Part shown: positions 527-64,000 of the stretch, piece after piece
How positions within the stretch are numbered: position 1 is the stretch's first letter
Layout of the letters: each line of letters begins with the position of its first letter
The notes under the pieces: model-generated
Database searches by the model: none
Seen by the model: only the letters and a program-made list of their open reading frames with translations
What the model was told of the DNA's origin: nothing
Source: a virus
Strand: one strand, 5' to 3'
IMG/VR virus record: IMGVR_UViG_3300046369_001149
Coordinates: 4,800-68,799 of that record
DNA: 64,000 nucleotides
Translations under genes and position numbers: made by a program

Positions 527-1150
527 ATGCTTATAAAATTCTTGAATATATTATATAAGAAGCCGAAAGATTATCAGATTTTTTGGTTGTATATTTTAGG
601 TCAAATTATTGATGGTAAACAATCTTTTGTTTCAATCAATGAATTGAAAAAAGTATTTGGATTTAATAAAACTAAATTTTATAGAATATTACGTTTTGGC
701 TTACCTTTTTTTAATAAAAAAAACAATGGAGTTTTTATTGATTCAAACAATGGTATTTTAATTATTGAAGTTATTAGAAATTCAAATAAAGTTCAAGAGA
801 AAAAACCTATTGAAAATAATAAGGAAATAATTAGAAATGTAATTGAATTTTTAAATAGTAAAACCAATAAAAACTTTACCACAAAAAGTAGTAAAACAAT
901 TAGTTGTATTAATTCAAGAATAAAGGAAGGTTTTATTGAAAATGATTTTATAAAAGTAATTGAAATTAAAACTGAAAAATGGTTAGGTACTTCAATGGAA
1001 GAATATTTAAGACCCATAACTTTATTTGGTAATAAATTTGATAGTTATTTAAATGAAACAAACAAAATAAATAAAGGGAATGAAAGGTTTGCAAAAACAC
1101 AATCCGCAGTTGATAAAGCTAAACAAGTCGATTGGTTCAATCAAGGGTAG
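527..1150 (+). CDS. replication initiator with conserved phage C-terminal domain (Phg_2220_C-like)
   Basis: N-terminal wHTH-like region; C-terminal IEFLNSKT..F...I..R..EGF...DF..VI..K...W....YLRP.TLFG.KF.SYLNE. Confidence 0.8.
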   Translation: MLIKFLNILYKKPKDYQIFWLYILGQIIDGKQSFVSINELKKVFGFNKTKFYRILRFGLPFFNKKNNGVFIDSNNGILIIEVIRNSNKVQEKKPIENNKEIIRNVIEFLNSKTNKNFTTKSSKTISCINSRIKEGFIENDFIKVIEIKTEKWLGTSMEEYLRPITLFGNKFDSYLNETNKINKGNERFAKTQSAVDKAKQVDWFNQG

Positions 1151-35594: not shown

Positions 35595-36122
35595 ATGAAT
35601 CAAAAAACATTATACATAATTGGCGGAAGCGTTGTAGGGCTAACATTGTCTTATTTTACTTTTAAGATTGTTAGAGCATATCGTAACAAAAAACTTGCAA
35701 CTGAAAACGAAATTAATGTTGATACTACTCAAACGGGTGGTAATATAGGTAGTGGACAACAAAGTTCGCAAGGGGCAAAACCATCGAATGATAGTTTTAA
35801 TTTAAAACTTGGGTCTTATGGATATAAAGTTACAATACTTCAATCAGCATTAAATAAATTAGGTGCATCTCTTGATGTGGATGGTAAATACGGACAAAAA
35901 ACTCAATTAGCTATTACTGAATTTAGTGGACTTCCTTTTTACGAATGGAATAAATCGTGTGATTGGCTTGGTGGGTGTTCTATTTCTCAAAGCAACTATA
36001 ATGATATATTGTCTAATGCTACACAAGAAGGTTGGAATGAAAGTGAAGCAAAAGTATTAGCCAGTAAAGATTGGAAAGAATTTAGTGGAAACGTAACAAC
36101 ATTTAGCAATTTAACAATTTAA
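35595..36122 (+). CDS. N-anchored peptidoglycan-binding (PG_binding_1) protein
   Basis: LKLGSYGYKVTILQSALN...VDGKYGQKTQLAI. Confidence 0.8.
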   Translation: MNQKTLYIIGGSVVGLTLSYFTFKIVRAYRNKKLATENEINVDTTQTGGNIGSGQQSSQGAKPSNDSFNLKLGSYGYKVTILQSALNKLGASLDVDGKYGQKTQLAITEFSGLPFYEWNKSCDWLGGCSISQSNYNDILSNATQEGWNESEAKVLASKDWKEFSGNVTTFSNLTI

Positions 36123-49720: not shown

Positions 49721-50584
49721 TCAACTTTCAAAGTCCAAAGTTAATGAATCTTTTTTATTTTCTAAAATATTATTTTCATTATTAATTGGCTCTAATTCAA
49801 TATCAATATTAGAATAAATAGATTTATTTCGTTTTGGTGCTATTCTTTTACCATCTACAAACATAACATTGTTATCTTCATCAAGTTTTAAATAACCACC
49901 ACCTTCTACTTTATCATCTACACTTATTCCTCTTTTGCCATAATAATCTTTAGGAAGCATTTTAGATAACTGCTTAATAACAGTTTTTCTAAACATCCAA
50001 CCTTGCGGGTCTTTTGAAGCATTTTTATATAATGGATTAGATGCCTTTGACATATTTACCACATCCATAATTTCTTTTTTACTCATAACCTTAAACATTG
50101 TTTCACCATTTGTAAGTTTAGCTACTGCATAAACATATTTAATGTTATTATTGTTTCTTTCAAGGTTTGGTAAGTGAGATAGTTTTGGTTCAAGACCAAG
50201 TTCAAATTCAAAATCATCTTCTTCATAAACTATTTCAGTCCAAAGTTTTGCTATTTCACCACTTCTTAAAAGTAAACTGATAAGACCTTTATAACCTAAA
50301 ATTGGTGTAATCTTTTTTCCGAAAGGTATAAAGTAAAACTCTCCTATATCATTTGAGGGGTTTAATCCGAGTTCAGCACAAAGTAATATAGAAGCAAACA
50401 GAGATGCGGGGTTATGCAAAAACGCTTCTTGCATCTGTTGGCTTTTTTTAACCTCATTTATAACTATATTTTTAAACTGTGATGGGCTTATGTTATGTGT
50501 TTGCAATAATTCTGAAAGATTATGCTTTTCATACTGCGTTATTGTGTCCGAGAAATTCTTAATTAATACTTTGTTTTGCTTCAT
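49721..50584 (-). CDS. recT: RecT-family single-strand annealing recombinase
   Basis: SLFASILLCAELGLNP..GEFYFIPF...LGYKGLI.L..RSG...VYEEDDF...M.RKTVIKQL.K.LP. Confidence 0.9.
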   Translation of the reverse strand: MKQNKVLIKNFSDTITQYEKHNLSELLQTHNISPSQFKNIVINEVKKSQQMQEAFLHNPASLFASILLCAELGLNPSNDIGEFYFIPFGKKITPILGYKGLISLLLRSGEIAKLWTEIVYEEDDFEFELGLEPKLSHLPNLERNNNNIKYVYAVAKLTNGETMFKVMSKKEIMDVVNMSKASNPLYKNASKDPQGWMFRKTVIKQLSKMLPKDYYGKRGISVDDKVEGGGYLKLDEDNNVMFVDGKRIAPKRNKSIYSNIDIELEPINNENNILENKKDSLTLDFES

Positions 50585-50852
50585 TGTGAAATTTTTTAAT
50601 TTTTAATCTATTTTCTTTACTGTAATTATATTTTCTTAACCATTCTTCTATTTTTCTTTTTTTTCTATCAACGTAAAAGTTTACTCTTACTATTTCATCA
50701 GTAATCATTTTTTTTTGCATAGGAGTTAGTTTATTATACATCATATAATCATACAGACCGCATACATATTTAGATATATAAATCATTTCTTCTTCATATT
50801 CATATATTTTCTTACTCGAAAAAAGTTGATTATCCATAATAAACATCCTCAA
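50559..50852 (-). CDS. hypothetical protein
   Basis: In operon between exonuclease and RecT. Confidence 0.5.
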   Translation of the reverse strand: MRMFIMDNQLFSSKKIYEYEEEMIYISKYVCGLYDYMMYNKLTPMQKKMITDEIVRVNFYVDRKKRKIEEWLRKYNYSKENRLKIKKFHNEAKQSIN

Positions 50853-51624
50853 TCAAAGGAATATCTGATTTAAACTCACATTTGTCATTTAGAGGACATT
50901 TAGAGCATCTTTTTAAACTTGGATAAGCTACGAAGTCCTTTTCAATATCCATAGCGTTAATTTGCTTGTAAACGCTTTCTATATGCGACTGATGTACATT
51001 AAAAGCATCTTCATCAATATTAACTCTAATTAGCTTAACATTGTTTACTTCTTTTGATGAAAACACCATAAAATAAAAATCGAAATCTTTGTATTCAAGA
51101 TTATAATTTTCTTTTATAAGCATTTTATACTGTACTGCTTGAACAATAAGTCGTTCTTTATAGTGTAAACTTTCAACATCCCAACCCGTTTCAGACCATT
51201 TATCATCAATAAGACCGCTATATTTTAAATCTACAATACAAGGTCTGCCATTCATTTCTCCCCATATATCTAAAATACCATTTTTATATTTGCTTGATAA
51301 TTTAAGCCCAATATCATTTATTTTTAAATCATATTGCTTTTGTATTTTTTTAAATAATTCTGCTGATTCTAAAGCCCTTTTAAAAGGAGTTGATATTGTT
51401 TCCCTTTTAGTACCCGCATAACTTAATCTTGGTTCGGGTACAATTCCGTTTCTTGGTAATGAACCCGTAGCCATATATTCAAAATAGTTTCCCAAATCCA
51501 TAGCTTCACTACTTGGAAATTGTACGTTGTCAAAATGTTTAGCTTTTAGTTGAATACCACAAAGGTTTTTACCTTTATACTCATTGTAATCTTTTAAGAA
51601 TGATTGACTTATTTTCTTATCCAT
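50830..51624 (-). CDS. PD-(D/E)XK Cas4/RecE-like exonuclease
   Basis: ISQS, GILD...IVDLK, Q...Y, C-terminal CxxC..C; upstream of recT. Confidence 0.8.
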   Translation of the reverse strand: MDKKISQSFLKDYNEYKGKNLCGIQLKAKHFDNVQFPSSEAMDLGNYFEYMATGSLPRNGIVPEPRLSYAGTKRETISTPFKRALESAELFKKIQKQYDLKINDIGLKLSSKYKNGILDIWGEMNGRPCIVDLKYSGLIDDKWSETGWDVESLHYKERLIVQAVQYKMLIKENYNLEYKDFDFYFMVFSSKEVNNVKLIRVNIDEDAFNVHQSHIESVYKQINAMDIEKDFVAYPSLKRCSKCPLNDKCEFKSDIPLIEDVYYG

Positions 51625-51925
51625 TTTTTTGTTGCTTTTTGTTGTTAATTACAATTTCAAGATATTTATTTTTTTCCATCCAACCATCATTTGAATAATC
51701 TTTGCCAACCCAAATGTGCTTTTTACCGCCTTTAATTTTAGAAGATTCCCCTACTACAAGGGTTTCTATTCTCACGTCTGTAATATTTTGAATAGATAAA
51801 TTTCCACCAACTTTATTATTTAGAGATACAAGCATTTGGTCAGCCATTTCTCTACTTTCTGCTTCCATAACTAATGGTTTTTCGATGTTATTTATATAAT
51901 ATTTATATAATTTAACCTTATTCAT
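51617..51925 (-). CDS. hypothetical protein
   Basis: ORF in operon. Confidence 0.5.
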   Translation of the reverse strand: MNKVKLYKYYINNIEKPLVMEAESREMADQMLVSLNNKVGGNLSIQNITDVRIETLVVGESSKIKGGKKHIWVGKDYSNDGWMEKNKYLEIVINNKKQQKNG

Positions 51926-52137
51926 TATGTTTTAATTTTCAGCAAAATATTTATTTGTTGTTCAAGTTCTTTGCGTAAATACATAACCAAAAGATGATTT
52001 TGTATGCGATAATTCTCTGCATATTTCAACTCAAAAAAACTTATCATTTTAGCAATAATATCAAAATGATAAATATTGTTTTTAGGGTTTTTTACAGTTG
52101 CTAATAATTTGTCGAAATCTCTTAAAATTGTTTCCAT
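51925..52137 (-). CDS. hypothetical protein
   Basis: ORF in operon. Confidence 0.5.
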   Translation of the reverse strand: METILRDFDKLLATVKNPKNNIYHFDIIAKMISFFELKYAENYRIQNHLLVMYLRKELEQQINILLKIKT

Positions 52138-52200
52138 ATCTTCTTAAATTTGAGCATACGCTTTGTTTGTGTCTTGCGTAATTTAGTTTCTTGTAAACGA

Positions 52201-52230
52201 AAGGGGGGTAGGTGAAAGCACTCCCCTTTT
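52201..52230 (-). terminator. hairpin/terminator
   Basis: aagggg...cccctt stem right after the 52229 stop. Confidence 0.5.
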
Positions 52231-52531
52231 ATTTTACTACTTTATAAGCAAATGGTTTTCCAATTCCTTTTTCGTAGCAATATTTATTTAAAGCACTAAA
52301 TGTTTCTAATGCTTTTATTCTTCCTTTAATTAACGCTTTACCATTAAAGAACCAAAAGTAATTACCATTTCTATCTATTAATCCAAATTTATATAAATTC
52401 CCGCTTTGAGGTCTGTTGTGTACACAATTCCTTAAAAGCGTAAAATCTATACCCCTTTCTTTAAAAGATGTAAAAGAGTATTCATTATTGTTTTCTCTAT
52501 CTGTAAACGGAAGTAAAATTAAATTTTCCAT
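52229..52531 (-). CDS. hypothetical protein
   Basis: Own TATGTTTG box at 52558-52565 (minus). Confidence 0.55.
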   Translation of the reverse strand: MENLILLPFTDRENNNEYSFTSFKERGIDFTLLRNCVHNRPQSGNLYKFGLIDRNGNYFWFFNGKALIKGRIKALETFSALNKYCYEKGIGKPFAYKVVK

Positions 52532-52604
52532 ATTTCGTTATTATCTGATTACGAGGACAAACATACAAAATAATTTTTATTTTAAAAAATAATAAACATA
52601 CAAA

Positions 52605-52626
52605 AGGGGAAAAACAAATTTCCCCT
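52605..52626 (-). terminator. terminator after PolB-like gene
   Basis: aggggaaa-aacaaa-tttcccct with a T-tract on the minus strand. Confidence 0.55.
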
Positions 52627-52650
52627 ATCAATTAAGTATTGAGTGGCGAT

Positions 52651-53352
52651 TCAATAACCTAACTGTTTGTATGTTAAATCTTTACTGTCAAAATACTCTT
52701 GAATTATTTTAACATTTTCATCATTATCTCTATAATATATGCAATCAGTTTTCCAAGAGTAGAAATCATCTTTAATCAATTCAGATGCTTCTTTCATATA
52801 ATTAAAACAAGATAACCTTATATATTTAAAAACATTTTTGAGTTCAATGTTTTCTTTTTGAGTAATAATAGATTCAGTTATTTTTCCATTTTTATATTCG
52901 TCAAATCTTTTTTCTCGACCTAACACAGATAAAGTTGCTAAACGAAGTGCTTTACAATCACTATCAAGACCCGCTATATAAGTTTTTTCACTTATAAAGC
53001 CCTTTATGTAAGCTATTCTCCAATATGCGTGATTTATGTCTGTACCCGCAAGAACACCATCATCAATATCATAATCATAGTTATATTCAATGGAGTTTAC
53101 ATTTTCAGGGATAATTAATTCATTTGTTTTAAGCCATTTAACAACTTGCAATTTGACTGTATTAAATAAATAAACTTTTTTCTTTGGAAAATTTGTTTGA
53201 GGTGCAAAAACAATATGCATATCATCAAGTATGACTTCTGTACATTCAGAAGATTTACGAAGATTAAAATTAGCTTTGTTCCTTACTAATTTATCTACAT
53301 AATTTAAAGGGTTTGATTTTTTTAAGAATTGTTTTCTAATTTTTTGGCTCAT
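52651..53352 (-). CDS. minimal family-B DNA polymerase-like protein (palm only)
   Basis: Motif A-like TDINHAYW and motif C-like WKTDCIYY; 233 aa; no exonuclease domain. Confidence 0.55.
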   Translation of the reverse strand: MSQKIRKQFLKKSNPLNYVDKLVRNKANFNLRKSSECTEVILDDMHIVFAPQTNFPKKKVYLFNTVKLQVVKWLKTNELIIPENVNSIEYNYDYDIDDGVLAGTDINHAYWRIAYIKGFISEKTYIAGLDSDCKALRLATLSVLGREKRFDEYKNGKITESIITQKENIELKNVFKYIRLSCFNYMKEASELIKDDFYSWKTDCIYYRDNDENVKIIQEYFDSKDLTYKQLGY

Positions 53353-54332
53353 ACCATACCACCTTTAAGTAAAATTTTCTTTTTTAAATCTTGAACTTCT
53401 TTTTTAAACTCTTTAGCAGTCCATATACCATCTTTAAATTCTTGTTTTAAAATTGCTCTTTGTTTTTCAAATCTTATTGCGTTTTTTTCTTTTTGTTTTA
53501 AAAGAGCAATTTCTTCTTTTGTACTTTTAGCTTTTTTAATCTTATCTTGAATTGATTTATCCTCTTTTGTTGAAGTAACCTTTGAGGGAGTTTTCAGTTT
53601 TCTGATTTTAGTTCGAGTAATTTTCTTTTTTTTATCAGATTCAGTTAATCTTTTTTCTCTTTGTTCTAATTGTTTTTTTGTTAGTGAACCCGTTTGAACT
53701 ACAATGTCAATTAAATTATCACCCGCTTTTTCAATCTCTTGTGATTCATCTTTACCAAAAACAACTTTTAAATATGAAGAACAATTTGCTGAATCACCTT
53801 CTTTCCCTTTTTTATATAATCTTAAAAATATTACTTCTGCTTCAACATTAGCACTATCATCTTTTACAAGACCTCTTAAATCTTTATTAAAATCCCCACT
53901 TTTAGTTCCTAAATCTTTTACCTTTACTATACCCGTATTTACAAACCCATTGCCACCATCAATATCAATTTGAATTTGAACATTACCATCTAATCTATTT
54001 AATTGTGCTTCTAAATCAAAAAGTTTTGTAGGAGTTAAATCAGCATCAGGAATTTTAAACACGCTAAAGCATTTGCTTGGCTTTACACCCTTTTTAATGC
54101 TTTCTAATGCTTGTTCTACATTTTTCTTTGTAAACTCTTTTAATGGCTTTGATTTAAACTCTTGGAACAGATTTGCAGAAGTCCATTTTTGAATTTTGTT
54201 CCAACTATTTTTAGACGTACTCTTACTCTCTTGGAGTATTTGTTCTTTTAAAATAGGGTTTTGGTCTGCTATCTTTTTAACTAAAGATGCAAGTTTTCCA
54301 AATTTCTTAAAGTTATTTGATTTTTTCGCCAC
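53349..54332 (-). CDS. basic hypothetical protein ending LLKGGMV
   Basis: Lys-rich; GTG start; TATCTTTG box at 54353-54360 (minus). Confidence 0.6.
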   Translation of the reverse strand: MAKKSNNFKKFGKLASLVKKIADQNPILKEQILQESKSTSKNSWNKIQKWTSANLFQEFKSKPLKEFTKKNVEQALESIKKGVKPSKCFSVFKIPDADLTPTKLFDLEAQLNRLDGNVQIQIDIDGGNGFVNTGIVKVKDLGTKSGDFNKDLRGLVKDDSANVEAEVIFLRLYKKGKEGDSANCSSYLKVVFGKDESQEIEKAGDNLIDIVVQTGSLTKKQLEQREKRLTESDKKKKITRTKIRKLKTPSKVTSTKEDKSIQDKIKKAKSTKEEIALLKQKEKNAIRFEKQRAILKQEFKDGIWTAKEFKKEVQDLKKKILLKGGMV

Positions 54333-54486
54333 AATAAAATATAATTATGCTTCAAAGATAATAAATTATTAGTAAATTTGAGAAAATATTGTAATCTATT
54401 ATAGCTTATAAGGTTAGATTTATTTGGTTACAACTTCTTATCTGTAAAACCCTCCTTTTTTTATCCATATTTTAAGGGGGGTTTCC

Positions 54487-55158
54487 TTATATATTAGTTT
54501 TTATAACTGTAAACCAATCGTATTTTTTATCGTTTACAATACCCCTATTATCAGTTGATATTATTTTCTTTGTTACTGAATTGTTTACGTTCCCACCAAT
54601 AACTTCAATTTTGTTTTTACCTTTAGATACTACAATATCACAATGGGATTTATATGGGTATGAAGAATTGTAACTGACACCTCTTTGCCTACTGTAACAT
54701 ATTAAGTCGCCAACTTTAGGTGCATATTCATTAAGTTTATAAGCTACAAATGGCTTTTGAACTAAACCTTTTTTTCTATTAGATATACTGTCTGTAATAT
54801 ATTTAGAATGTGATGGGTTATATACAAACTTTTTACCCGCACCGCCTTTTTTCATTATATAAGAAATAAAAGCACTCGACCAAGCTACATCTGTATCAGT
54901 ACCATCAAACTTTTGACCCGTTCCAACTCGCCAATACTCGCCTACTCTTTGTGCAAAACCTCTATTGGCTTCAAAACCGCCTTTACGAGTTTGTTTGCCA
55001 TCAATTTCTATTGTTGGGCTACCCCAACCTTCCCATTCTTTTTTTGCAACGCTTACAACTCTGTATTTGACTAATATTTTACGCAATAGCAAAGCTAATG
55101 CAGTAATACCTATTACCGCACCAACACCAAAATATATTATGTTGTTATTTTTTGACAA
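54487..55158 (-). CDS. N-anchored CHAP-like peptidoglycan hydrolase (DUF2272-like)
   Basis: YW...AWSSAFISY.M, H..YI, PKVGDLIC..R, SHCDIVV, IGGNV..SV. Confidence 0.8.
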   Translation of the reverse strand: MSKNNNIIYFGVGAVIGITALALLLRKILVKYRVVSVAKKEWEGWGSPTIEIDGKQTRKGGFEANRGFAQRVGEYWRVGTGQKFDGTDTDVAWSSAFISYIMKKGGAGKKFVYNPSHSKYITDSISNRKKGLVQKPFVAYKLNEYAPKVGDLICYSRQRGVSYNSSYPYKSHCDIVVSKGKNKIEVIGGNVNNSVTKKIISTDNRGIVNDKKYDWFTVIKTNI

Positions 55159-55575
55159 TTAATAACGACCTCTAATATTAGAATTAAAGAAATCTGCTGA
55201 TACTTGACCTTTTACCGCAGTTGGGTACATAGATTTGAAGGTGGTGAATGGTTGTTGATTTACGATTACCGCTTCTTCTGTTCTTCTGCCGAAATCTCCA
55301 TCCACACCATCTCTATTTGCACCAAATGTACCAATGTCGTAACCCTCTGCAACTAAAAATCTTTGCAGTTGTTTTACTAATTCTCCTTTACTACCTCTTT
55401 TTAATGGAAGTCCACTATTATTTGTTGTAGTAGTTGTTGAGGTTGTCGAAGTTGTATCATCTTCTTCAACATCTCCAAAATAGATAACGGGTTTTGTTAC
55501 CTTTTTATATATAAAGTAACCAAGTACCGATACTGCTACTCCACCTATTGTCCAATATATTGCTTTCTTATTCAT
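55159..55575 (-). CDS. N-anchored peptidoglycan-binding protein
   Basis: LKRGSKGELVKQLQRFL...GVDGDFGRRTEEAV. Confidence 0.85.
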   Translation of the reverse strand: MNKKAIYWTIGGVAVSVLGYFIYKKVTKPVIYFGDVEEDDTTSTTSTTTTTNNSGLPLKRGSKGELVKQLQRFLVAEGYDIGTFGANRDGVDGDFGRRTEEAVIVNQQPFTTFKSMYPTAVKGQVSADFFNSNIRGRY

Positions 55576-55598
55576 ATCTATTTATTTATTTTAATTTT

Positions 55599-55751
55599 TT
55601 ACGCATTTCTTAATTGACCTCTTTTAATGTCTTGTGATGCTACTAATTTCATAAATGTAGCGTTTGCATCGCTTTTACCTTTTTTCATTCCGAAGTAGTA
55701 ACCTAATCCTAAAGAAATTAAACTTGCAATAATTAATTTTTTGTTTTTCAT
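55599..55751 (-). CDS. 50-aa membrane protein
   Basis: MKNKKLIIASLISLGLGYYFG... Confidence 0.55.
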   Translation of the reverse strand: MKNKKLIIASLISLGLGYYFGMKKGKSDANATFMKLVASQDIKRGQLRNA

Positions 55752-55882
55752 TTTCCTTGTCCTTTATATTTTTTTCTATAATTTTTAGAGGTTTTAACAG
55801 AAGAACTTTTGCTTTTTGCGTGTACCCCTTTTCTCTTTGTTTTGTGTTTTTTATTATAGTCGCTTGAAATTAACTTTGCCAT
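55748..55882 (-). CDS. 44-aa basic protein
   Basis: KRKGVHAKSKSS..K.SKNYRKKYKGQGK. Confidence 0.6.
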   Translation of the reverse strand: MAKLISSDYNKKHKTKRKGVHAKSKSSSVKTSKNYRKKYKGQGK

Positions 55883-55888
55883 TTTAAC

Positions 55889-56101
55889 TTAATTTAATCC
55901 TTTTTTTGCAAAATAATACATTCCCCCAATCAATAAAATTAAAACAATGTATAAACTTTTATCAGATTTTGGTGGTACATAACCATATTCTAAAGTTTCT
56001 GTATCAGTTCCACCCACACCATTCCAAGTATCTGTATTTAAAGGTGCATCTTTAGATTTAATATTTCCACTCCAATTATCTGTATTTACGGGTGCTTTCA
56101 T
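55889..56101 (-). CDS. C-anchored membrane protein
   Basis: Duplicated AP.NTD.W.G; C-terminal TM. Confidence 0.6.
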   Translation of the reverse strand: MKAPVNTDNWSGNIKSKDAPLNTDTWNGVGGTDTETLEYGYVPPKSDKSLYIVLILLIGGMYYFAKKGLN

Positions 56102-56105
56102 CGTT

Positions 56106-56381
56106 TTATTTATTATATGTTTTAAACTTTGATACTATTGTATCTCCAAGACCACCAATAATATTAGCAGATAAAGGAAATGTAACTCCAAATATTATTG
56201 CTCTACGGACTTTGCTTATCGAGGATGTTCCCGTATAAAGACCCACTCCTACACCTAAAGCCAAATAACCAATAACTGCACCTAAACTTTCCATACCTTG
56301 ATTTACACCTAATAATTTAGATACTGCTCTACTCCCCGCATACATACCCCCTACTTTTGAAGGTTGTTTTATTTTTTTCAT
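56106..56381 (-). CDS. membrane protein
   Basis: Gly-rich hydrophobic segments. Confidence 0.6.
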   Translation of the reverse strand: MKKIKQPSKVGGMYAGSRAVSKLLGVNQGMESLGAVIGYLALGVGVGLYTGTSSISKVRRAIIFGVTFPLSANIIGGLGDTIVSKFKTYNK

Positions 56382-56478
56382 TTCTTATTTCTTTTTAAAA
56401 AATTCAAAATATGCCAAAACACCAACTACTATTAAAATTGGGGATGCTTGTTTGAGTATTCTTGTATTCATAATATAT

Positions 56479-57000
56479 TTATTTTTTTATCCAACGCTTA
56501 CCATCCCATTTCCAACACATTTCAGTACCACAAGATGTATAATAATCTTTATTAGGGTCATAAGCACCCGCACCTTTGCCAAATTTCTTTGCCAAATTTA
56601 TAGTCATTTGTGGGCTTAACATTGGTGGCATTAAACCCTTCTTTGCAATTTCCATTAAATTTTTACTCGCATCTTGCAATGAAGTTGTAAAATCTGCAAT
56701 TTGTTGTTTTGTACACAATTCATTCCATTCAAAAGGATATTGAGGTGCGGTGTATTTACTACCACCCATAAGATAACCTAAAGAATCTCTTTTTTTCCAC
56801 GCTTCCCTTATTTTTCTTTGTTGCTCAACAGTATCTTTGTCAATCGGACATTTTTCACCACCAAATATTAGCCCTTGTTCTTCTTGAATAAAATCTTGTA
56901 TATCTGCATTGGTTTTTTTAGTCAATTCACCTTTTGTTAATTTACGCAAAAAGTAAACTCCACCTAATAAAAAAACACCCGCTATAATATACTTTTTCAA
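56479..57000 (-). CDS. N-anchored membrane protein
   Basis: TM YIIAGVFLLGGVYFL; Cys-containing ectodomain. Confidence 0.6.
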   Translation of the reverse strand: MKKYIIAGVFLLGGVYFLRKLTKGELTKKTNADIQDFIQEEQGLIFGGEKCPIDKDTVEQQRKIREAWKKRDSLGYLMGGSKYTAPQYPFEWNELCTKQQIADFTTSLQDASKNLMEIAKKGLMPPMLSPQMTINLAKKFGKGAGAYDPNKDYYTSCGTEMCWKWDGKRWIKK

Positions 57001-57011
57001 AATATTATTTT

Positions 57012-57260
57012 TTAACTATATCTCCCATTTGGATTTGGCTTACAATAATTTAATGATGGATTTTCTTTTGTTCCACCTATATAACCTTTTGCACAAACCA
57101 TAACTTTTCCATCTTTTCTTTTATAATATGTTTTTTTATCTTCCTTTGGTTTTATAGTTTCTTTTACCTTTTCGGTAACTATCGCTACTTCTTTACTTTT
57201 AAATAAAAAGTACAAAAGTACCGCTATACCTACTCCTATAATTAATTTTTTATTTTTCAT
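57012..57260 (-). CDS. N-anchored membrane protein
   Basis: LIIGVGIAVLLYFLF, similar to 38137. Confidence 0.6.
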   Translation of the reverse strand: MKNKKLIIGVGIAVLLYFLFKSKEVAIVTEKVKETIKPKEDKKTYYKRKDGKVMVCAKGYIGGTKENPSLNYCKPNPNGRYS

Positions 57261-57497
57261 TTATTTAAACTTTTTATATGCAAAATATCCCGCTACTGCT
57301 ACAACCCCAACTAACCAAAGTGGAACATACTCCCCTTTTTTATATTTTATATTTGTCAAATTTGTGTCAGAATTGTAAATACCATATTTATCTATATCTA
57401 TTATCCTAAACATTGGAACACGATTAATAGGGCGATATACCTCAAAGATTCCCGAATCCCCTCCTCCTTGTTTATTCTTAATAGTCAATACTTTCAT
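57261..57497 (-). CDS. C-anchored protein, shared-anchor family
   Basis: WLVGVVAVAGYFAYKKFK. Confidence 0.65.
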   Translation of the reverse strand: MKVLTIKNKQGGGDSGIFEVYRPINRVPMFRIIDIDKYGIYNSDTNLTNIKYKKGEYVPLWLVGVVAVAGYFAYKKFK

Positions 57498-57500
57498 AAC

Positions 57501-57947
57501 TTACTTTTTAAATTTTTTATATGCGAAATAACCCACTACTCCAATAAGACCATACACAATCCACTTCTTGTTTTTTAAAGGGTCGCCAAATTTAACTTCA
57601 TCAACAACTGATGACTTTTCATAGTCCGACACTCTTTGATATTCTCCTTTTTCTAAAGTTAATCCTAAATTTTTTCCATTAAATTTCAGCCTTGCCATTC
57701 CATTTCGTTGAATATCAGCAATATATTTTTTGTCTTTCATAGCCAATCGGCAAGGGTCGTAATCCATAGTTCTAATACCCCCTTGATTACCACATTTACC
57801 TCTTGACTTACTCACTAATGAAACAACCTCAACATCAGTTTCTACAATTTCACTATTTATTCTACTTTTTTCCCGTAAACGCTTATCTCTTTGTATTCTT
57901 GAAAGACCCATTAAAATACTTTCATAATCTCCTACTCTTTGACTCAT
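57501..57947 (-). CDS. C-anchored protein, shared-anchor family
   Basis: WIVYGLIGVVGYFAYKKFKK. Confidence 0.65.
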   Translation of the reverse strand: MSQRVGDYESILMGLSRIQRDKRLREKSRINSEIVETDVEVVSLVSKSRGKCGNQGGIRTMDYDPCRLAMKDKKYIADIQRNGMARLKFNGKNLGLTLEKGEYQRVSDYEKSSVVDEVKFGDPLKNKKWIVYGLIGVVGYFAYKKFKK

Positions 57948-57950
57948 AAC

Positions 57951-58283
57951 CTACTTGTTAAACTTTTTATACGCAAAATAACCCGCTACTGCTATAAGAC
58001 CATATACAAGCCATTTGTTGCTTTTTATAGTTTGCAAAATATCTTTTTTAGGGTTTTCAAAAGTAAAATCTTCTCCTAATTTTAATTGTTTCCCTTTTGG
58101 TGGACTATACATACCCATTTGACTTTTATCTTGTGGAACTACACCCTCATAGTATTGTGTAGTCCTTGAACTGCCACCACCTCTGCTATCTGTATAAAAT
58201 TCATATTCAGTAACAGTAATTTTGTCTGCATTTGGAGTAAAAGCATCTTTAGTGCCTTTAAAAGTCCATTTCATTGTACTCAT
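57951..58283 (-). CDS. C-anchored protein, shared-anchor family
   Basis: WLVYGLIAVAGYFAYKKFNK. Confidence 0.65.
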   Translation of the reverse strand: MSTMKWTFKGTKDAFTPNADKITVTEYEFYTDSRGGGSSRTTQYYEGVVPQDKSQMGMYSPPKGKQLKLGEDFTFENPKKDILQTIKSNKWLVYGLIAVAGYFAYKKFNK

Positions 58284-58285
58284 AA

Positions 58286-58765
58286 TTATATTTTTTTAAA
58301 AATTTCTATTGCTTTATTCATTCTTTCTTTTGAAATAAATTTCGGTCTTTCATAATACTTTGCAAAAGCAAACGCTGAATCTTGTGGAGTTTTTTGTTCC
58401 AATAGTTCTCTTTTAGCTTTTTTCTCTGTATTATTTAATTCCCAATCTATAAACTTTAATTGAGTTTCAAACTTGTTTACATCTAAACCTCTTTCATTTG
58501 ACCATTTTTTTAAACTTTCCCATCGGCTTTTATGCCATTGAGCAAGTCCAAAAGAAGTACCATTATCTCCAATGGCTTTAGGGTCGTATTTACTTTCAAC
58601 ATAAATATTCCCCGCTATTCCCGAAGCATTGGCTTTGCTATATCCTAAATTCATAAGAAAACGAACAATACCAACTCCGTTTTTGGATAGCGGGGGTCTT
58701 TTAGCACTTAATAACAATAAAAATGTTGCACCTACTCCAAATCCTATTGCTACATATTTAAGCAT
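58286..58765 (-). CDS. N-anchored lysozyme (Phage_lysozyme2-like)
   Basis: ASGIAGNIYVES..DP...GD.GTSFGLAQW...R...QL.FI..EL...F...YERP. Confidence 0.85.
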   Translation of the reverse strand: MLKYVAIGFGVGATFLLLLSAKRPPLSKNGVGIVRFLMNLGYSKANASGIAGNIYVESKYDPKAIGDNGTSFGLAQWHKSRWESLKKWSNERGLDVNKFETQLKFIDWELNNTEKKAKRELLEQKTPQDSAFAFAKYYERPKFISKERMNKAIEIFKKI

Positions 58766-58872
58766 TATTCTCCCGCTTCTGAACCTTTCTTAAAAGCATA
58801 TCCGACTACATAAACAGTAACCGCTAATCCTACTAATCCTAAAGCATATCCTAATAAACTTCCTTTTTTCAT
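58765..58872 (-). CDS. 35-aa membrane peptide
   Basis: MKKGSLLGYALGLVGLAVTVYVVGYAFRKGSEAGE. Confidence 0.5.
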   Translation of the reverse strand: MKKGSLLGYALGLVGLAVTVYVVGYAFKKGSEAGE

Positions 58873-58899
58873 AATATATATATTAAATTAAACTAAATT

Positions 58900-59463
58900 T
58901 TAAACTGCCATTCGTGGCTCATTTGTTAATCCTAACTTACCGCTATCAAACGCATACGTTGGAAAAGTTCTCGTTCTTTCCATTGGATAAAGTATTGATA
59001 CTCTATCTCTTGTTTCAATAGGTCGAAGTGGATTACCCTTTCGTCTGTCATTTACATTTCGTGGTGGAACACCTATTCTTCTTGGTTTATCCATCATTGG
59101 ATATGGTTCTTCCTCTTTTCTTTTTCTATCAACTGTTGCTTTCCATTTTTTAAATTCTTCTAAAAGACCAAGTGTCTGCAATTTTAATTTTGCTTGTTCT
59201 CTTGCAATAGAAAGTCTTGCAATTAAACCTTTTGGTGGTTCTACCCCACCTCTGTAAAAATTATTTGCTTGTTGGAAAAGTTTTAACTTTTCCTTTTCTG
59301 AAATCTTTGTATCGAGTTCATCATTACCTAAATTAGCACCTTCTGAAACATCGTTTTTTTTAGGTGTTGTATCAGTTACAGAAATTGATTTTGACTTATT
59401 CTTTGTTAAGTAGTAAATAGCAAAGGCAATTCCACCTAAAATTATGATATTTTTTGTTTTCAT
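58900..59463 (-). CDS. N-anchored membrane protein
   Basis: MKTKNIIILGGIAFAIYYL; start reassigned. Confidence 0.6.
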   Translation of the reverse strand: MKTKNIIILGGIAFAIYYLTKNKSKSISVTDTTPKKNDVSEGANLGNDELDTKISEKEKLKLFQQANNFYRGGVEPPKGLIARLSIAREQAKLKLQTLGLLEEFKKWKATVDRKRKEEEPYPMMDKPRRIGVPPRNVNDRRKGNPLRPIETRDRVSILYPMERTRTFPTYAFDSGKLGLTNEPRMAV

Positions 59464-59548
59464 ATTTGATATAATTAGCGTAAATAAATATAGCAAATAT
59501 CAAAAATTATTTTAGGGAATAATAATTATGGAGTTAATTTAAAAGCAA

Positions 59549-60457
59549 CTATTGAATTTGTTTTAGCAATAATTTGCAATTTTTATTCATATTAAGCGAC
59601 TTCAAAGCCACTTGTCGGAGTTCATAACCATAGTTTTGGTCGTATTTTTCTAATTCATTGATTAAAAATTCTTCCGTTGTAGGTATTTTCATTTTTCTTC
59701 CACTACAATTATTTTCGTGAAAATGATAGTAATTCGCTTGGGTTAAAAAACCATCTGAATATGAATTTTGATATGGTCGGTGGTCTGCAACAATAACATT
59801 TCTTCCACAAGCCATTGATTCATAACAACCTCTACCTAAAGAAAAAACAAGGTCTGCTTTATATATCTGATTTTCAATATCAAAAATTGGATTTGTAAAC
59901 TTATTGTTTGAATAAAAAATTATATTTTTCTTTTTACATATTTCAGCCAAAATTTCATTAAAAGATGAACTTTGAGATAATGACAAACAACTTTTTAATT
60001 GAGGTCTTGTTTGCTTAAAATTAAACCTATCTAAATCTACAAAATTGGAAATATAAACTGAATCTAATCCATACTTTGTCTTTAAATAATTTTGCACTTC
60101 TTTACTAATTGCTATATACTTTAAGCCATTATGTATAACGGGTTGTTCTTCGGGTGGTATTGTTCCGTGTACAATTTGAAAAACATTATTTAAAGGTTGC
60201 CCTTTTAGGTAACTTATATAAGATTTCACAGAACTTTGATGAGATAAAAAACAAGCATCATAAGAGGTTGTTAATCTGTTTGCTCGTATTTTAAAATCAT
60301 CTTCGATTTTATCAGACATAATCCCTAACCTATTGGGTTGTCCGACTAATAATTCAACATCGTGTCCTAATTTTTTAAGACCTTTTATTAAAGTGTAAGT
60401 AAATGTTTCAGACCCGCCAAGCGTATCTAAATGATTTTGACCGACTAATATTTGCAT
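59549..60457 (-). CDS. GT-B (family 4-like) glycosyltransferase
   Basis: GGSETFTYTL..GL..LGHDV, ISKEV, NFVDLDRF, GRGCYESMACGR. Confidence 0.85.
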   Translation of the reverse strand: MQILVGQNHLDTLGGSETFTYTLIKGLKKLGHDVELLVGQPNRLGIMSDKIEDDFKIRANRLTTSYDACFLSHQSSVKSYISYLKGQPLNNVFQIVHGTIPPEEQPVIHNGLKYIAISKEVQNYLKTKYGLDSVYISNFVDLDRFNFKQTRPQLKSCLSLSQSSSFNEILAEICKKKNIIFYSNNKFTNPIFDIENQIYKADLVFSLGRGCYESMACGRNVIVADHRPYQNSYSDGFLTQANYYHFHENNCSGRKMKIPTTEEFLINELEKYDQNYGYELRQVALKSLNMNKNCKLLLKQIQ

Positions 60458-60468
60458 CTTTTAGTATT

Positions 60469-61113
60469 TTATCTCTTGTACGCAGTAACAAAGTATTCTA
60501 AATTTCCTATTGGTTTGTATTCACCATTAGCACCATAACCAACAAGATTACCTTCACTTATTTCTATATCTTTAAACCCCGTTGCACTAAACATACTTAT
60601 TAATTCTTCTTTAAGATACAAATTTACAAAGGTAGTTTCTTTATAATATTCATTTGGTCTTTGCGGGAATTGAATATAAACTTTTCCACCTTTTTTAAGA
60701 CATTTATATAAGTTTTTAAGTATTTCAGAGTGATACCTTTTATCGTTATGCTGAAAAACCATAATACTATAAATGAAATCAAAATAATCATAATCTTTTA
60801 TAATATTTAATCCATCAGAGTAGTGAGTAATAATATCTGAATCAATAGTGTCTATTGCTTTTAAAAATTTAGCACTTGCATCTGCCCCGTGTTTTTCTTT
60901 TGCTTTAAGATGAGTTAAAGTTCTTCCAATACCACATCCGAAATCAAGTATAATATCGTTTTTAATATCATATTCTTTTGCTATTTCGTATGCTTGTGCT
61001 TTACCTTCATCCCAAAAATCTTTTTCAGTTCGTTGAGGTAATATGAAGTCAATCCAATTATCCGTATTTTCAATTTCTTTCCAAGTGTTTTTTATCAAAT
61101 TTTCTTCCATCAA
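60469..61113 (-). CDS. class I SAM-dependent methyltransferase
   Basis: ILDFGCGIGR, FDFIYSIMVFQH, LKKGG. Confidence 0.9.
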   Translation of the reverse strand: MMEENLIKNTWKEIENTDNWIDFILPQRTEKDFWDEGKAQAYEIAKEYDIKNDIILDFGCGIGRTLTHLKAKEKHGADASAKFLKAIDTIDSDIITHYSDGLNIIKDYDYFDFIYSIMVFQHNDKRYHSEILKNLYKCLKKGGKVYIQFPQRPNEYYKETTFVNLYLKEELISMFSATGFKDIEISEGNLVGYGANGEYKPIGNLEYFVTAYKR

Positions 61114-61604
61114 TCTCTGCCTTTAATTACTATGTGTGAATCTTCATCTTCTAAATCAAGATGTGAGAATTTATCTGTAATTACTTTGTAATCACTTTTT
61201 GCATCAAACGAGGGGCAAGATTTAGTAACTCCTTCAAAATCTCTATGACCGAGAATTTCTGCTTTAGGGTGTAAATTTTTATAATAATTACACAAATCTA
61301 TTAGGGCTTCCTTTTGCTCAATAGTTCGTGTATCTTTTGGAATCCAATCCCCGTTTTTCTTGTTTGTTTCTACACCACCAACATAACATAAATGAATAGA
61401 GTGTTTATTTTGACCCCGTACACCCGCACCTATTTCATTATCTCGCCTACCCTGATGTACCTCACCATTTCTATAAATAACTGCGTGATAACCAATATCT
61501 CTCCAACCTCTATCTGTATGCCACTTCCTTATAGTGTCAATAGAATAATCTTTACCTTCGGGTGTAGCTGAACAATGAACAACTATATGATTAATTTTTC
61601 TCAT
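61110..61604 (-). CDS. N-acetylmuramoyl-L-alanine amidase (T7-lysozyme type endolysin)
   Basis: IVVHCSAT, WH..RGW.DIGYH, CYVGG, GHRDF, KSCPSFD. Confidence 0.92.
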   Translation of the reverse strand: MRKINHIVVHCSATPEGKDYSIDTIRKWHTDRGWRDIGYHAVIYRNGEVHQGRRDNEIGAGVRGQNKHSIHLCYVGGVETNKKNGDWIPKDTRTIEQKEALIDLCNYYKNLHPKAEILGHRDFEGVTKSCPSFDAKSDYKVITDKFSHLDLEDEDSHIVIKGRD

Positions 61605-61719
61605 TGGATTTTACTTAAAATATATCCTATCATTTTTCCCCATAACAAAAAGGTTATTAAAAAAATACAAAGCCAAGTAAAAATAACTTGAAAATCGAAA
61701 TTTGGTTTATTCATTTTCA

Positions 61720-61998
61720 TTAGTCAGAAAAAAACTTAAAATTAGTACCAACTTCTTTATCAATATATCCCATTAACTTTCGAGATGCTGATTGATATTG
61801 TTTCTTCATACTTGATGTACTATCAACCCCCAATTCTGCCATTAAGACTGTATTTAAAAACAAAAATTTATCCCTTCTGCTTGTTGGTTTTAATCGTGCT
61901 TCCAATATTTTATTTACAATGGTGTCGAACTCTTGAAGATTAAAAACTCTGTAATCACCATTTGTATCTATTGTTCTGTTGTGTAATTTAATTCTCAT
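61720..61998 (-). CDS. hypothetical protein
   Basis: Own TATCTTTG box at 62018-62025 (minus). Confidence 0.55.
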   Translation of the reverse strand: MRIKLHNRTIDTNGDYRVFNLQEFDTIVNKILEARLKPTSRRDKFLFLNTVLMAELGVDSTSSMKKQYQSASRKLMGYIDKEVGTNFKFFSD

Positions 61999-62031
61999 AA
62001 TTAAGGCATTATTAAAACAAAGATATAAAAA

Positions 62032-62049
62032 AAGGGGTAAAAACCCCTT
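62032..62049 (-). terminator. terminator
   Basis: aagggg-taaaaa-cccctt with a T-tract on the minus strand. Confidence 0.55.
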
Positions 62050-62071
62050 AATTTTATTTTAAAAGATAATA

Positions 62072-62467
62072 TTACTTATTTTTAAATTGTTCTATTGGTA
62101 TTTCAGCCAATGGGTCGTCTTTAAGTAATTTAATTAAATCAGTATTAAAATGTTTAGGTTTTTCTTTCGGAACAGATGATAAAAAGTTATCAGAATTATT
62201 TTCATCATATTTATTTCTGTCTATCTGTTTTGCTAACTTAAACAATTCTTCTTCAAGGGGATAAGTGCTATTTTCATCTTTGGTGAAAGCATCATACTCT
62301 AATACCATTTTAAGAAGTTTTTTAAATCTCGGTAGGTTTTGAATAGCTAAAGCATAATCAAAATCATATTTGCTTTGAAATACAGTACAAACCATTTCAT
62401 CATTTTCATTTACTATATGAAAGGGTTGATGTGGAATCTTTGAATCTATTAATTTCCAATTTTTCAT
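62072..62467 (-). CDS. hypothetical protein
   Basis: Coupled operon of small genes. Confidence 0.55.
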   Translation of the reverse strand: MKNWKLIDSKIPHQPFHIVNENDEMVCTVFQSKYDFDYALAIQNLPRFKKLLKMVLEYDAFTKDENSTYPLEEELFKLAKQIDRNKYDENNSDNFLSSVPKEKPKHFNTDLIKLLKDDPLAEIPIEQFKNK

Positions 62468-62691
62468 TTTAACAAATATTTAATTAAATCGTTTTGATTT
62501 ATTGCAACCGCATCAAATCCGTTTAATTTAGGGTTTTCATCATAAAAATTAAGAGTATATACACCACCTTTTTCCACAAAGTCCATATATCCATTTTCCT
62601 TTTTCATAGAAACCATTTTATTTAATATTAAAACTAAATCTTCGTTTTTGACTTCTATTGACCTTATATTGCTTACCATATCTTTAATCAA
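62464..62691 (-). CDS. hypothetical protein
   Basis: Coupled operon. Confidence 0.5.
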   Translation of the reverse strand: MIKDMVSNIRSIEVKNEDLVLILNKMVSMKKENGYMDFVEKGGVYTLNFYDENPKLNGFDAVAINQNDLIKYLLK

Positions 62692-62890
62692 CTCTATTTA
62701 AAATATCAAACTTTGTTTTCTCTTTTTTGAGAAGTGAAAGCATATACTGTGATTGATACAATTTTTCTTTATAGAATTTAACATCAAATTCTTCGTCTTT
62801 AATTTTTTTATCTAAAATTTTTATTAAAGATTCATTTGTTAAATCTTTTGCTTCTTCTTTTACTTTTTTAAACATTTGCTTTGTTTCCAT
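62684..62890 (-). CDS. hypothetical protein
   Basis: Coupled operon. Confidence 0.5.
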   Translation of the reverse strand: METKQMFKKVKEEAKDLTNESLIKILDKKIKDEEFDVKFYKEKLYQSQYMLSLLKKEKTKFDILNRVD

Positions 62891-62963
62891 ATTTATTATT
62901 TATTATTTGTTATTAAAAAAATTATTCCGATAAAAATTAAACCTACTGCAATTTTAAACATAT

Positions 62964-63188
62964 TTAGCTTATTAAATCAGCTTTAAAATTAGGTATTTTT
63001 TGTGCATCAATTTTAAATTTACGGATTTTTTCTTCAATCTTAACTCCACGATAGTCAGAATATTTAAAAATACTCTCATCTATCAATCGTGAATTAAAAT
63101 TACCACTATACACTTGGGTAAATAGTTTCACTAAACTATCATTCCATTTAAAATCACAAACTTTTATGTTTTTTTCATCAACACTCAT
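62964..63188 (-). CDS. hypothetical protein
   Basis: Coupled operon. Confidence 0.5.
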   Translation of the reverse strand: MSVDEKNIKVCDFKWNDSLVKLFTQVYSGNFNSRLIDESIFKYSDYRGVKIEEKIRKFKIDAQKIPNFKADLIS

Positions 63189-63406
63189 AATACATTTTTT
63201 TCTATTTGTACTAATCTATTAAGTTTTTCCTCATCAGTAATTGTTTCCCAATCACTCGGTGGTTGCCAATTAGGTATAAAACTTTTCATAGTAGCAAAAA
63301 CAATTCTTTGCTTATAAGCTACTTTTTCAGAAATTGAAGTATCATCTTTTTCAGTTAATTCCCCCAATTTTAAAAACCCTTTCATTAAGTCAAATGTATT
63401 TTCCAT
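63185..63406 (-). CDS. hypothetical protein
   Basis: P.DWET....EK..RL motif. Confidence 0.55.
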   Translation of the reverse strand: MENTFDLMKGFLKLGELTEKDDTSISEKVAYKQRIVFATMKSFIPNWQPPSDWETITDEEKLNRLVQIEKNVL

Positions 63407-63411
63407 ATTTA

Positions 63412-63870
63412 TTATTTGTTATTCATTAAATTATTATAATTAAACTTTTTGCCTAAAGATTTTATTATGTTAGTTTTTTCTTCGCTGAAACCAAAACATT
63501 TGCTATTATAAACTAAAGCGTGTGATGGTATTTCAATCTTATTACCTACAAAATCTTTACCTCTTTGAGTAATTCTCCAAAATCCCGAATTTTTCTTGGT
63601 GCTTTCTGTGTTTGCTCTTTCCTCAATTAATTTCCAATAGGACATTTTTGCGAAATCCCCCGTTAGATTTATGTTCTTGGTAATTTCTCTAACGTGAATC
63701 CAATCCTTTTCTTTACTTAAATTGTAAAGTATGATTAAACCTTGTGATTGCATTGAGCCAAGTTTTCTTTTGTATAATTTTACAAATTGATTACAACAAG
63801 GACAATTAACACCCTCATTAAAATTACTACGGAGATACTCTTTTGCTTCTTTTATAGTTTCTATTCCCAT
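63412..63870 (-). CDS. CPCC motif plus winged-helix-like protein
   Basis: CPCCNQ.VK.Y.R, GFWRITQRGKDFV; start reassigned to 63870 because a TATATTTG box lies at 63889-63896. Confidence 0.55.
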   Translation of the reverse strand: MGIETIKEAKEYLRSNFNEGVNCPCCNQFVKLYKRKLGSMQSQGLIILYNLSKEKDWIHVREITKNINLTGDFAKMSYWKLIEERANTESTKKNSGFWRITQRGKDFVGNKIEIPSHALVYNSKCFGFSEEKTNIIKSLGKKFNYNNLMNNK

Positions 63871-64000
63871 ATATACCTGATTACAACACAAATATACAAA
63901 ATTATCTTTAAAAACAAAAAATTATTCTATATTTTATCCCAAAGCGTTTTTAAGCTATTTAAGGGCTTCAAACCAATACGAGTGTATATTCACATTATCC

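Follow-up and report, generated by a model that had tools for sequence, protein, structure and literature searches.

We analysed a 64,000-nt stretch of viral DNA (hereafter the window; bases 4800-68799 of one 68,799-bp record, IMG/VR IMGVR_UViG_3300046369_001149), with emphasis on two adjacent genes coding for a protein of 233 amino acids (aa), here named T, and a Lys-rich protein of 327 aa, here named c0. The best overall explanation, to which we give slightly less than an even chance, is that T is a reduced nucleotidyltransferase which handles genome ends together with c0. In this reading the pair would be a terminal protein/family B DNA polymerase (PolB) module cut to its minimum and residing in host-dependent phages of 50-146 kb. 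The pair is tentatively assigned to the ends because its carriers combine linear inverted-repeat genomes with a host-type replication initiator and no recognisable polymerase. The two genes are located as follows:

52651..53352, minus strand: T, an ATG-to-stop open reading frame (ORF) of 233 aa, palm/fingers-like, from the ORF call and its motifs
53349..54332, minus strand: c0, a GTG-started ORF of 327 aa, Lys-rich, the partner of T

T belongs to a sizeable protein family. Among proteins of similar length, 319 relatives were retrieved at E<=1e-3, many of them from ocean metagenomes (Tara-derived members), and a library clustered at 50% identity contains 392 representatives at the same threshold, while no longer or fused relatives were found among proteins of 498-2000 aa. 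Relatives are absent from 50,697 phage records (three queries) and from 72,556 plasmid records, and the family appears to have no cultured member. In PHROGs, T weakly matches one family of unknown function and nothing else. In a literature search that had subscription journals outside its coverage, we found no description of the T family, of the c0-T pairing or of large phages with such ends.

Only D105, K134 and D203 are invariant, Met1 aside, in 64 diverse members with identities down to 21%. Counted over 289 aligned relatives, D105 is kept in all 289, K134 in 288 and D203 in each of the 286 sequences without a gap at this position; residue 110 is aromatic in 288 (264 Tyr, 24 Phe), R179 is kept in 265 and T202 in 256, and the two positions after D203 are occupied by C/G/A and then I/V. 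An earlier note on this DNA had described the 233-aa ORF and quoted three strings from it, all of which we recover (DINHAYW, KALRLATLSVLG and KTDCIY, with first residues 105, 134 and 201, respectively), and the two Asp residues that it took as putatively catalytic are those kept throughout the homologues. The same note allowed for a relic, which does not agree with the pattern of conservation: three residues of catalytic type are near-invariant in a family that has diverged to about 20-25% identity, which argues for T being an active enzyme, and a relic or pseudogene was rejected on this ground. A defence or anti-defence gene was also considered, and was rejected for want of a PADLOC match.

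The conserved positions can be read as a set of polymerase-type motifs, with D105 motif A-like, Y110 steric-gate-like, K134 motif B-like, R179 Tx2GR-like and T202-D203 motif C-like. In motif A the Asp and the aromatic residue at +5 are present, and the S, L and P of DxxSLYPS are replaced by H, A and W in T. The motif B-like Lys follows the motif A Asp at 29 residues; K-x3-N is found in 36-37 of the 289 members, Gly at +8 in a few (P0248, P0259, P0245 and P0207), Tyr at +7 is absent, and four members carry K-x3-N-[AS]-[AS]-I-G, close to the PolB signature Kx3NSxYG. Within its 233 aa T has no 3'-5' exonuclease domain, no thumb and no TPR1 or TPR2 insertion, the lack of a thumb following from the mere 30 residues that remain beyond D203; nothing exonuclease-like was found in it, in keeping with the absence of a proofreading domain noted earlier. 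The label 'palm-only' attached to T in the earlier note is too narrow, because the invariant Lys lies between the two Asp on a helix that looks like short fingers, and because there is in addition an N-terminal domain of 100 aa.

Covariation within the family provides a view of the fold. Mean-field direct coupling analysis (DCA) on the 289 T sequences, with an effective number of 171, sets strand 98-106 antiparallel to 203-211 through T104-Y207 (z 9.7), G99-R208 (6.4), G103-C204 (4.4) and D105-D203 (3.0), with V100-D209 also in the ladder and T104-Y207 as the second strongest pair overall. This band, whose windows, like those of the bands below, were picked after the pairs had been seen, scores best of the 21,945 antiparallel bands tested (z 7.2). 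A second antiparallel ladder joins 102-108 to 225-230 (rank 40 of 22,578, z 4.8), and a hairpin 196-201/204-208 is weak (z 2.0). Together these pairings arrange the strands as b2-b3-b1-b4; b1 terminates in one Asp, and the turn from b2 to b3 holds the other. The palm of right-hand (RRM-like) polymerases has this strand order and Asp placement. The helix bearing K134 packs on this core, through the strongest pair of the whole analysis (L141-I178, z 11.4) as well as A109-L141 and L141-I205, and an N-terminal helix (60-75) packs against the 119-144 region. Just 7 individual pairs score above the maximum reached in three column-shuffle controls, and the weaker members of the ladders therefore carry weight only collectively. 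A DDE transposase or RNase H-like fold was rejected because of the antiparallel pairing of the Asp-bearing strands; in RNase H-like and PD-(D/E)XK cores the catalytic strands run differently. Taken together with the comparison with PolB that follows, T is probably a palm nucleotidyltransferase.

For comparison with PolB we built an alignment of 14 protein-primed sequences from fetched records, to which eight diverse phage polymerases had been added because a search with the phi29 polymerase gave only relatives of at least 61% identity. Once the TPR1 columns are removed from it, the best local hhalign alignment with the T family spans 115 columns and pairs D105 with D249, Y110 with Y254, K134 with K383, R179 with R438 and T202-D203 with T457-D458 (canonical phi29 numbering). 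Identical strongly conserved columns number 7, against a maximum of 4 in 167 column and 167 block shuffles, and in the 37-member subfamily with Asn at K+4 they number 9, against a maximum of 3 in 208 block shuffles; since both the TPR1 cut and this coincidence statistic were chosen after the alignment had been seen, the resulting collinearity of motifs (7-9 coincidences, with at most 4 across all 542 shuffles) is suggestive and no proof. Furthermore, language-model look-ups with T and with a member 52% identical to it return DNA_pol_B_2 (0.86/0.87) and DNA_pol_B (0.84/0.85) as the nearest Pfam-bearing clusters, similarities that the tool itself rates as a lead only.

A number of results weigh against a PolB origin of T. 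Pfam has no match for T or the 64 diverse members, NCBIfam and PADLOC have none for T, and two family profiles find nothing among PDB chains at E<=10. Aligned by hhalign with the phi29 polymerase or with the 14-sequence alignment, the T family reaches a probability of at most 0.5%, and local, global and low-mact modes yield nothing significant. The in-register alignment itself scores at the level of shuffles (13.2, compared with 13.1 +/- 2.0; 30 of 60 column and 44 of 60 block shuffles reach it), and so does that of the K+4 Asn subfamily (15.1, compared with 14.5 +/- 2.1; reached by 75 of 208). Most members lack the first Asp of DTDS as well as the Y and G of motif B, and the post hoc choices and the shuffle controls described above count on the same side. 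Membership of T in PolB thus finds no backing in standard sequence and profile tests, all of which are negative, and we do not file T under PolB because it fails on both detectable similarity and domain content. We nevertheless think that T functions like the catalytic core of a PolB, and, on all the evidence, regard descent from a PolB as slightly more probable than all other origins taken together.

The same observations can be turned into a different account, in which the polymerase likeness is coincidental and T has some other fold, for instance that of a metal-dependent nuclease or of an end-processing or recombination factor with two Asp and a Lys, protecting or processing linear ends with c0 in the manner of a Gam/Ku-like end binder plus nuclease. 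Such an account would explain why every profile test against PolB stays at noise, it can point to the many hydrolases with D...K...D triads, and it suits a neighbourhood of recombination genes. It has to contend, however, with a top covariation band in which the Asp-bearing strands lie next to each other in antiparallel orientation and the second Asp sits on the turn of a hairpin, with 7-9 conserved residues collinear with four PolB motifs where shuffles give at most 4, and with a subfamily that keeps K-x3-N-[AS]-x-x-G. We consider it improbable.

Further evidence for the reduced polymerase module is the association of T with c0. The c0 gene lies directly upstream of T in all 32 loci compared (the window and 31 IMG/VR loci), in 3/3 contigs binned into bacterial metagenome-assembled genomes (MAGs), and in each of the 47 loci with T in a set of 63 retrieved independently by way of the downstream exonuclease; about half of these 47 share contigs with the first set. 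A Sediminibacterium MAG contig and the low G+C content are the only hints of Bacteroidota hosts. None of the 63 exonuclease loci has c0 or T alone; 16 have neither, and 9 of these 16 include at least 5.5 kb of upstream DNA. The gap between c0 and T is -11 to +21 nt in 30 of the 32 loci, and in the window the c0 stop codon and the T start codon overlap as ATGA. With 65 Lys in 327 aa (19.9%), c0 is the Lys-rich gene that the earlier note saw ahead of T. Its net charge is +14 in the N-terminal third, -6 in the middle third, which looks beta-strand-rich, and +21 in the C-terminal third; R153 is invariant, C88, T133 and the Tyr of column 186 are each conserved in 20 of 22 sequences, and T133 and the column 186 Tyr are the conserved hydroxyl candidates. 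Pfam, PHROGs, NCBIfam, PADLOC and PDB contain no match of note to c0. In the records of phi29, a PRD1-like phage, GIL16c and asccphi28, a terminal protein gene followed by a polymerase gene is annotated, which agrees with the order stated for tectiviruses in the earlier note. On these features c0 is a candidate terminal protein or DNA-binding accessory.

The pair is not isolated: it forms the head of a longer conserved co-directional block of small ORFs, a PD-(D/E)XK exonuclease and RecT, whose members in the window are:

52229..52531, minus strand: conserved ORF of 100 aa (cluster c5, 17 loci), downstream of T, no family
51617..51925, minus strand: conserved ORF of 102 aa (cluster c6, 15 loci), no family
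50830..51624, minus strand: PD-(D/E)XK exonuclease, Cys cluster at its C-terminus, found downstream of the pair in 25/32 loci
49721..50584, minus strand: RecT, a single-strand annealing protein whose gene closes the block, present in 23/32 loci

The block is also found on an 8,957-bp contig labelled GVMAG, that is, assigned to a giant-virus MAG (L003/L074); because it carries the same c0-T-exonuclease arrangement, this contig is probably a mis-binned phage fragment.

This arrangement bears on whether T, even as a palm enzyme, acts at genome ends at all. It could instead be a primase-like or gap-filling enzyme of the RecT/exonuclease module, for example one extending annealed 3' ends, or an enzyme of GGDEF/class III cyclase type, with c0 as accessory or regulator. 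A palm-type sheet is common to many enzyme classes, including GGDEF and class III cyclases, and the covariation supports such a sheet only. The pair heads a block that ends in the exonuclease (25/32) and RecT (23/32), and one relative without T also has an inverted end overlap. The divPolA1/divPolA2 enzymes provide a precedent for thumb-less phage polymerases beside ordinary replication genes (10.1101/2024.04.26.591309). Against a cyclase, the aromatic residue at Asp+5, the Lys helix between the two Asp and the T-D-[CS]-[IV] hairpin are more in line with a templated DNA polymerase, PolB families are named by both language-model look-ups, and the 64 members have no GGDEF or cyclase match in Pfam. 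Against a role confined to recombination, the exonuclease relatives do without c0-T in the 9 loci with ample upstream DNA, and the recombination genes therefore do not need the pair. Overall, we judge this alternative unlikely, and return to the view that c0 and T serve the genome ends.

Besides the exonuclease and RecT, PHROGs and Pfam recognise two replication genes in the window, and no polymerase:

527..1150, plus strand: replication initiation protein (Phg_2220_C, phrog_428), a host-dependent module for internal initiation, located towards the opposite genome end from c0-T
25084-25548: RusA-like resolvase

The first of these is the host-dependent initiator that the earlier note had attributed to this phage. 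PF03175 (DNA_pol_B_2), PF00136 (DNA_pol_B) and PF00476 (DNA_pol_A) are absent from five carrier genomes, and PF07733 (DNA_pol3_alpha) likewise from five, searched as whole records. With the initiator present and an own polymerase missing, we infer that bulk replication is driven by the host. To the left of the window, a 401-aa DNA repair exonuclease (L044:2811-4016; phrog_704, E 2e-72; no Pfam match) constitutes a second nuclease.

The ends of the record form an exact 127-bp inverted repeat, without any direct repeat, and are classed by IMG/VR as inverted terminal repeats. One copy lies within the window:

63874..64000, no strand: right copy of the 127-bp inverted repeat, matching the left genome end outside the window and probably the inner part of a longer repeat

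We evaluated 29 T-bearing records (G000-G015, G025-G035, G037 and G038), of which 10 have inverted end repeats and none has direct terminal repeats. In five of the ten (G000, G003, G008, G029 and G030) the repeats are classed by IMG/VR, and in the other five (G002, G009, G010, G025 and G028) comparison of the contig ends uncovers partial inverted repeats. Among the 12 records that are at least 90% complete, 7 have end repeats, and the inverted-repeat carriers rated 100% complete by CheckV include G000, G003, G025, G028, G029 and G030. The attached repeat edges measure 653 bp (G008, both ends) and at least 489, 696, 905 and 995 bp, after which the contig stops.

The exact repeats are of two lengths, 127 bp (G000, G029 and G019, which lacks T) and 123 bp (G003 and G030), both of which we take to be assembler k-mer sizes, as is the 141-bp direct repeat of G016. 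Since repeat lengths equal k-mer sizes, several contigs do not stop at a physical end of the DNA. Repeats of this kind arise in de Bruijn assembly if a single collapsed repeat edge is attached to both ends of the unique genome body, in opposite orientation, and this reading is borne out by G028, which extends 362 nt further than the near-identical G029 and thereby shows a repeat of at least 489 bp. The inverted terminal repeat calls of IMG/VR therefore mark a collapsed longer repeat here rather than true termini, and the last base of the window is probably not the physical genome end. The genomes of the lineage are thus flanked by inverted repeats several hundred bp long.

Conservation of the inner 127 bp extends to a relative with a T of 66% identity. 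Within them, a block of about 55 nt is near-identical (GAATAATTTTTTGTTTTTAA...TTTGTATATTTGT.TTGTAATCA; G000:66-125 compared with L041, the right end of G005) between genomes whose proteins are about 66% identical, and its right-hand inverted copy lies at about 63876-63935 of the window. The arrangement TTG...TATATTTG in this block might act at both ends as a promoter directed inward or as an origin element.

Such ends could also be closed hairpins, or the repeats could be internal, with a RusA-like resolvase and recombination proteins resolving them in a poxvirus- or chloroplast-like manner and c0-T unrelated to the ends. The phage does encode RusA-like resolvase (25084-25548), RecT and exonuclease, the 123- and 127-bp exact repeats represent overlaps of k-mer length left by the assembler, and G019 has an inverted overlap without T. 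We nevertheless hold this to be very improbable. A protelomerase (ResT/TelK catalytic domain, PF16684) was found in 0/5 genomes, and the first 600 nt examined at this genome's ends contain neither palindrome nor fold-back. In five assemblies the repeat edge is 489-995 bp long with no sequence beyond it, which is what a physical end would give, and as CheckV rates inverted-repeat carriers as 100% complete, a second unique region is hardly likely to have been missed.

For the proposal that c0-T acts on linear ends, the link between pair and ends is circumstantial, and several observations count against it. No end repeat was found in five of the 12 carriers that are at least 90% complete (G001, G004, G006, G007 and G035), and the exact repeats have the lengths of assembler k-mers. 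In genomes with both ends, c0-T lies 4-10 kb from the contig end and not at it. G019 (L129), a distant relative found through the exonuclease, lacks both T and c0 and keeps a 127-bp inverted overlap, and nine relatives without T have no PolA or PolB either, so that the absence of a polymerase is not specific to carriers. As for the proposed primer, c0 resembles no described terminal protein family, and at column 186 Ser takes the place of Tyr in the protein of the window, directly followed by a Tyr. In favour of the link, G016 (L124), another relative without c0 or T and rated 100% complete, has direct terminal repeats instead. The possibility that a canonical terminal protein and PolB take the place of c0-T in the relatives without T was rejected, as PolA and PolB are missing there.

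These data can be accommodated in a model where T is an active but drastically reduced right-hand nucleotidyltransferase, made of a palm with two metal-binding Asp, short helical fingers with a phosphate-binding K134 and the 100-aa N-terminal domain, and would preserve the pattern and spacing of a protein-primed PolB minus the TPR1 insertion and all parts beyond the palm. It would be produced with c0 as a fixed, translationally coupled pair. The host replisome would copy the bulk of the genome from an internal origin, and a linear molecule copied in this way would be left with unfinished ends, to which c0-T is a candidate solution. There c0 would bind the terminal repeat and probably offer the priming hydroxyl as terminal protein, its Lys-rich tail perhaps standing in for the missing thumb, and T would add the first nucleotides and then fill the terminal gap. 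RecT and the exonuclease might assist by annealing the inverted repeats, which is speculation on our part. Taken on its own, action of the pair at genome ends with c0 as protein primer is a tentative proposal, clearly below an even chance. We thus share with the earlier note the view of T as a repurposed nucleotidyltransferase for priming or end patching, which is favoured by the inverted repeats, the universal gene order and the lack of a recognisable polymerase.

At the level of transcription, two candidate signals flank the pair:

52626-52605, minus strand: terminator-like hairpin and T-run, directly 3' of T
54353-54360, minus strand: candidate Bacteroidota-type -7 box TATCTTTG, 21 nt 5' of the c0 GTG, without statistical support

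The hairpin, with an 8-bp stem including 4 GC pairs and a T-run, begins 25 nt past the stop codon and corresponds to the terminator that the pair had been said to own. The promoter of its own that went with this claim is not upheld: a sigma-70 scan gives fewer sites than shuffles do (26, compared with 35 +/- 6), and TAnnTTTG, presumably the Bacteroidota-type consensus, is not enriched across the window (127 occurrences, with 124 +/- 11 expected). The description as a two-gene unit holds for the c0-T pair as such, and has to be widened in that the pair also heads the longer co-directional block.

In the window at large, the larger genes all converge from both ends near 49.7 kb (1-49642 on the plus strand, 49721-64000 on the minus strand), and the GC skew switches sign near this point. 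No terminase, portal or capsid protein is recognised by either Pfam or PHROGs, and the P-loop ATPase at 27128-27940 (270 aa) is matched only weakly, by families of HerA/Zot/AAA_22 type. A 1173-aa polyvalent protein (6556-10077, plus strand) combines DUF5824, Zeta-toxin/AAA_33 kinase-like and ART-PolyVal ADP-ribosyltransferase domains, and is followed by a MoxR/CobS-like AAA ATPase (11071-12474) and then by ORFs of 580, 963 and 1387 aa without family. Cell-wall enzymes are unusually many (54487-55575, 58286-58765 and 61110-61604 on the minus strand, 35595-36122 on the plus strand), with DUF2272/CHAP, two PG_binding_1, Phage_lysozyme2 and Amidase_2 as types, and further genes of the window code for a PAP2 phosphatase (24422-25087), three glycosyltransferases and one methyltransferase.

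In its strongest form, which we regard as doubtful, the proposal is that c0-T is the smallest known machine for protein-primed DNA synthesis, with c0 providing thumb and DNA grip in trans as well as the covalent terminal protein, and with the pair capping and completing the inverted repeats. If this were true, the pair would do in phages what end patching does in Streptomyces, and might give an idea of a minimal ancestral PolB. A T that works as polymerase core would not reach half the length of the smallest protein-primed PolB among the fetched records, and would define the minimal catalytic unit of the family, of use in enzyme engineering and in models of polymerase origin. To our knowledge, protein-primed replication in tailed phages is known only for genomes of about 11-28 kb; polymerase-less phages of 50-146 kb with long inverted terminal repeats and a dedicated end pair would then represent a second phage answer to the end-replication problem, in a widespread and uncultured lineage of marine and freshwater phages.

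Four known systems invite comparison. The piPolBs keep the exonuclease and the full polymerisation domains and are detected by PolB profiles, by which T, unlike them, goes undetected. What can be set beside T in these enzymes of pipolins is that they are described as a non-canonical, reduced form of PolB which is found in mobile elements and needs no nucleic-acid primer to begin DNA synthesis (PMC5695915). The divPolA1/divPolA2 and TV-Pol enzymes come closer in architecture: these phage polymerases are described as keeping the palm, whereas their thumb and exonuclease are shortened, absent or exchanged for an N-terminal domain of unrelated type (10.1101/2024.04.26.591309), just as T would be a palm-keeping, thumb-less phage enzyme. 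They are, as described there, family A enzymes of several hundred residues, often beside a regular polymerase, whereas T has PolB-type motifs, is about half the size and occurs in genomes without another recognisable polymerase. In the Streptomyces Tpg/Tap system, as described, the host replisome works from an internal origin and the 3' overhangs are filled from a protein primer (PMC4513846, PMC5449611). The logic proposed for c0-T is the same; Tap is described there as a primase, not PolB-like, and the molecules served are bacterial chromosomes and plasmids, not phages.

Finally, the closest likeness in layout is with the phi29-like phages and tectiviruses, which differ from the carriers of T in several respects. 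Carrier genomes of 50-146 kb contrast with genomes of 11-28 kb and have a host-replication initiator in addition, and c0 matches no annotated terminal protein. T, at 233 aa, compares with protein-primed PolBs of 553-760 aa in the fetched records, lacks their exonuclease, TPR1, TPR2, thumb and the first Asp of DTDS, and has no detectable profile similarity to them. In common with these phages (DNA_pol_B_2, PF03175), a basic protein gene of about 250-330 aa is followed by the enzyme gene, and the genomes are linear with inverted end repeats. Likewise, the Asp, the aromatic residue at +5, the Lys, the Arg and the Thr-Asp of T are collinear with motifs A, B, Tx2GR and C of protein-primed PolBs, and after removal of TPR1 the spacing from the Lys to the motif C Asp is 69 residues in T and 75 in phi29.

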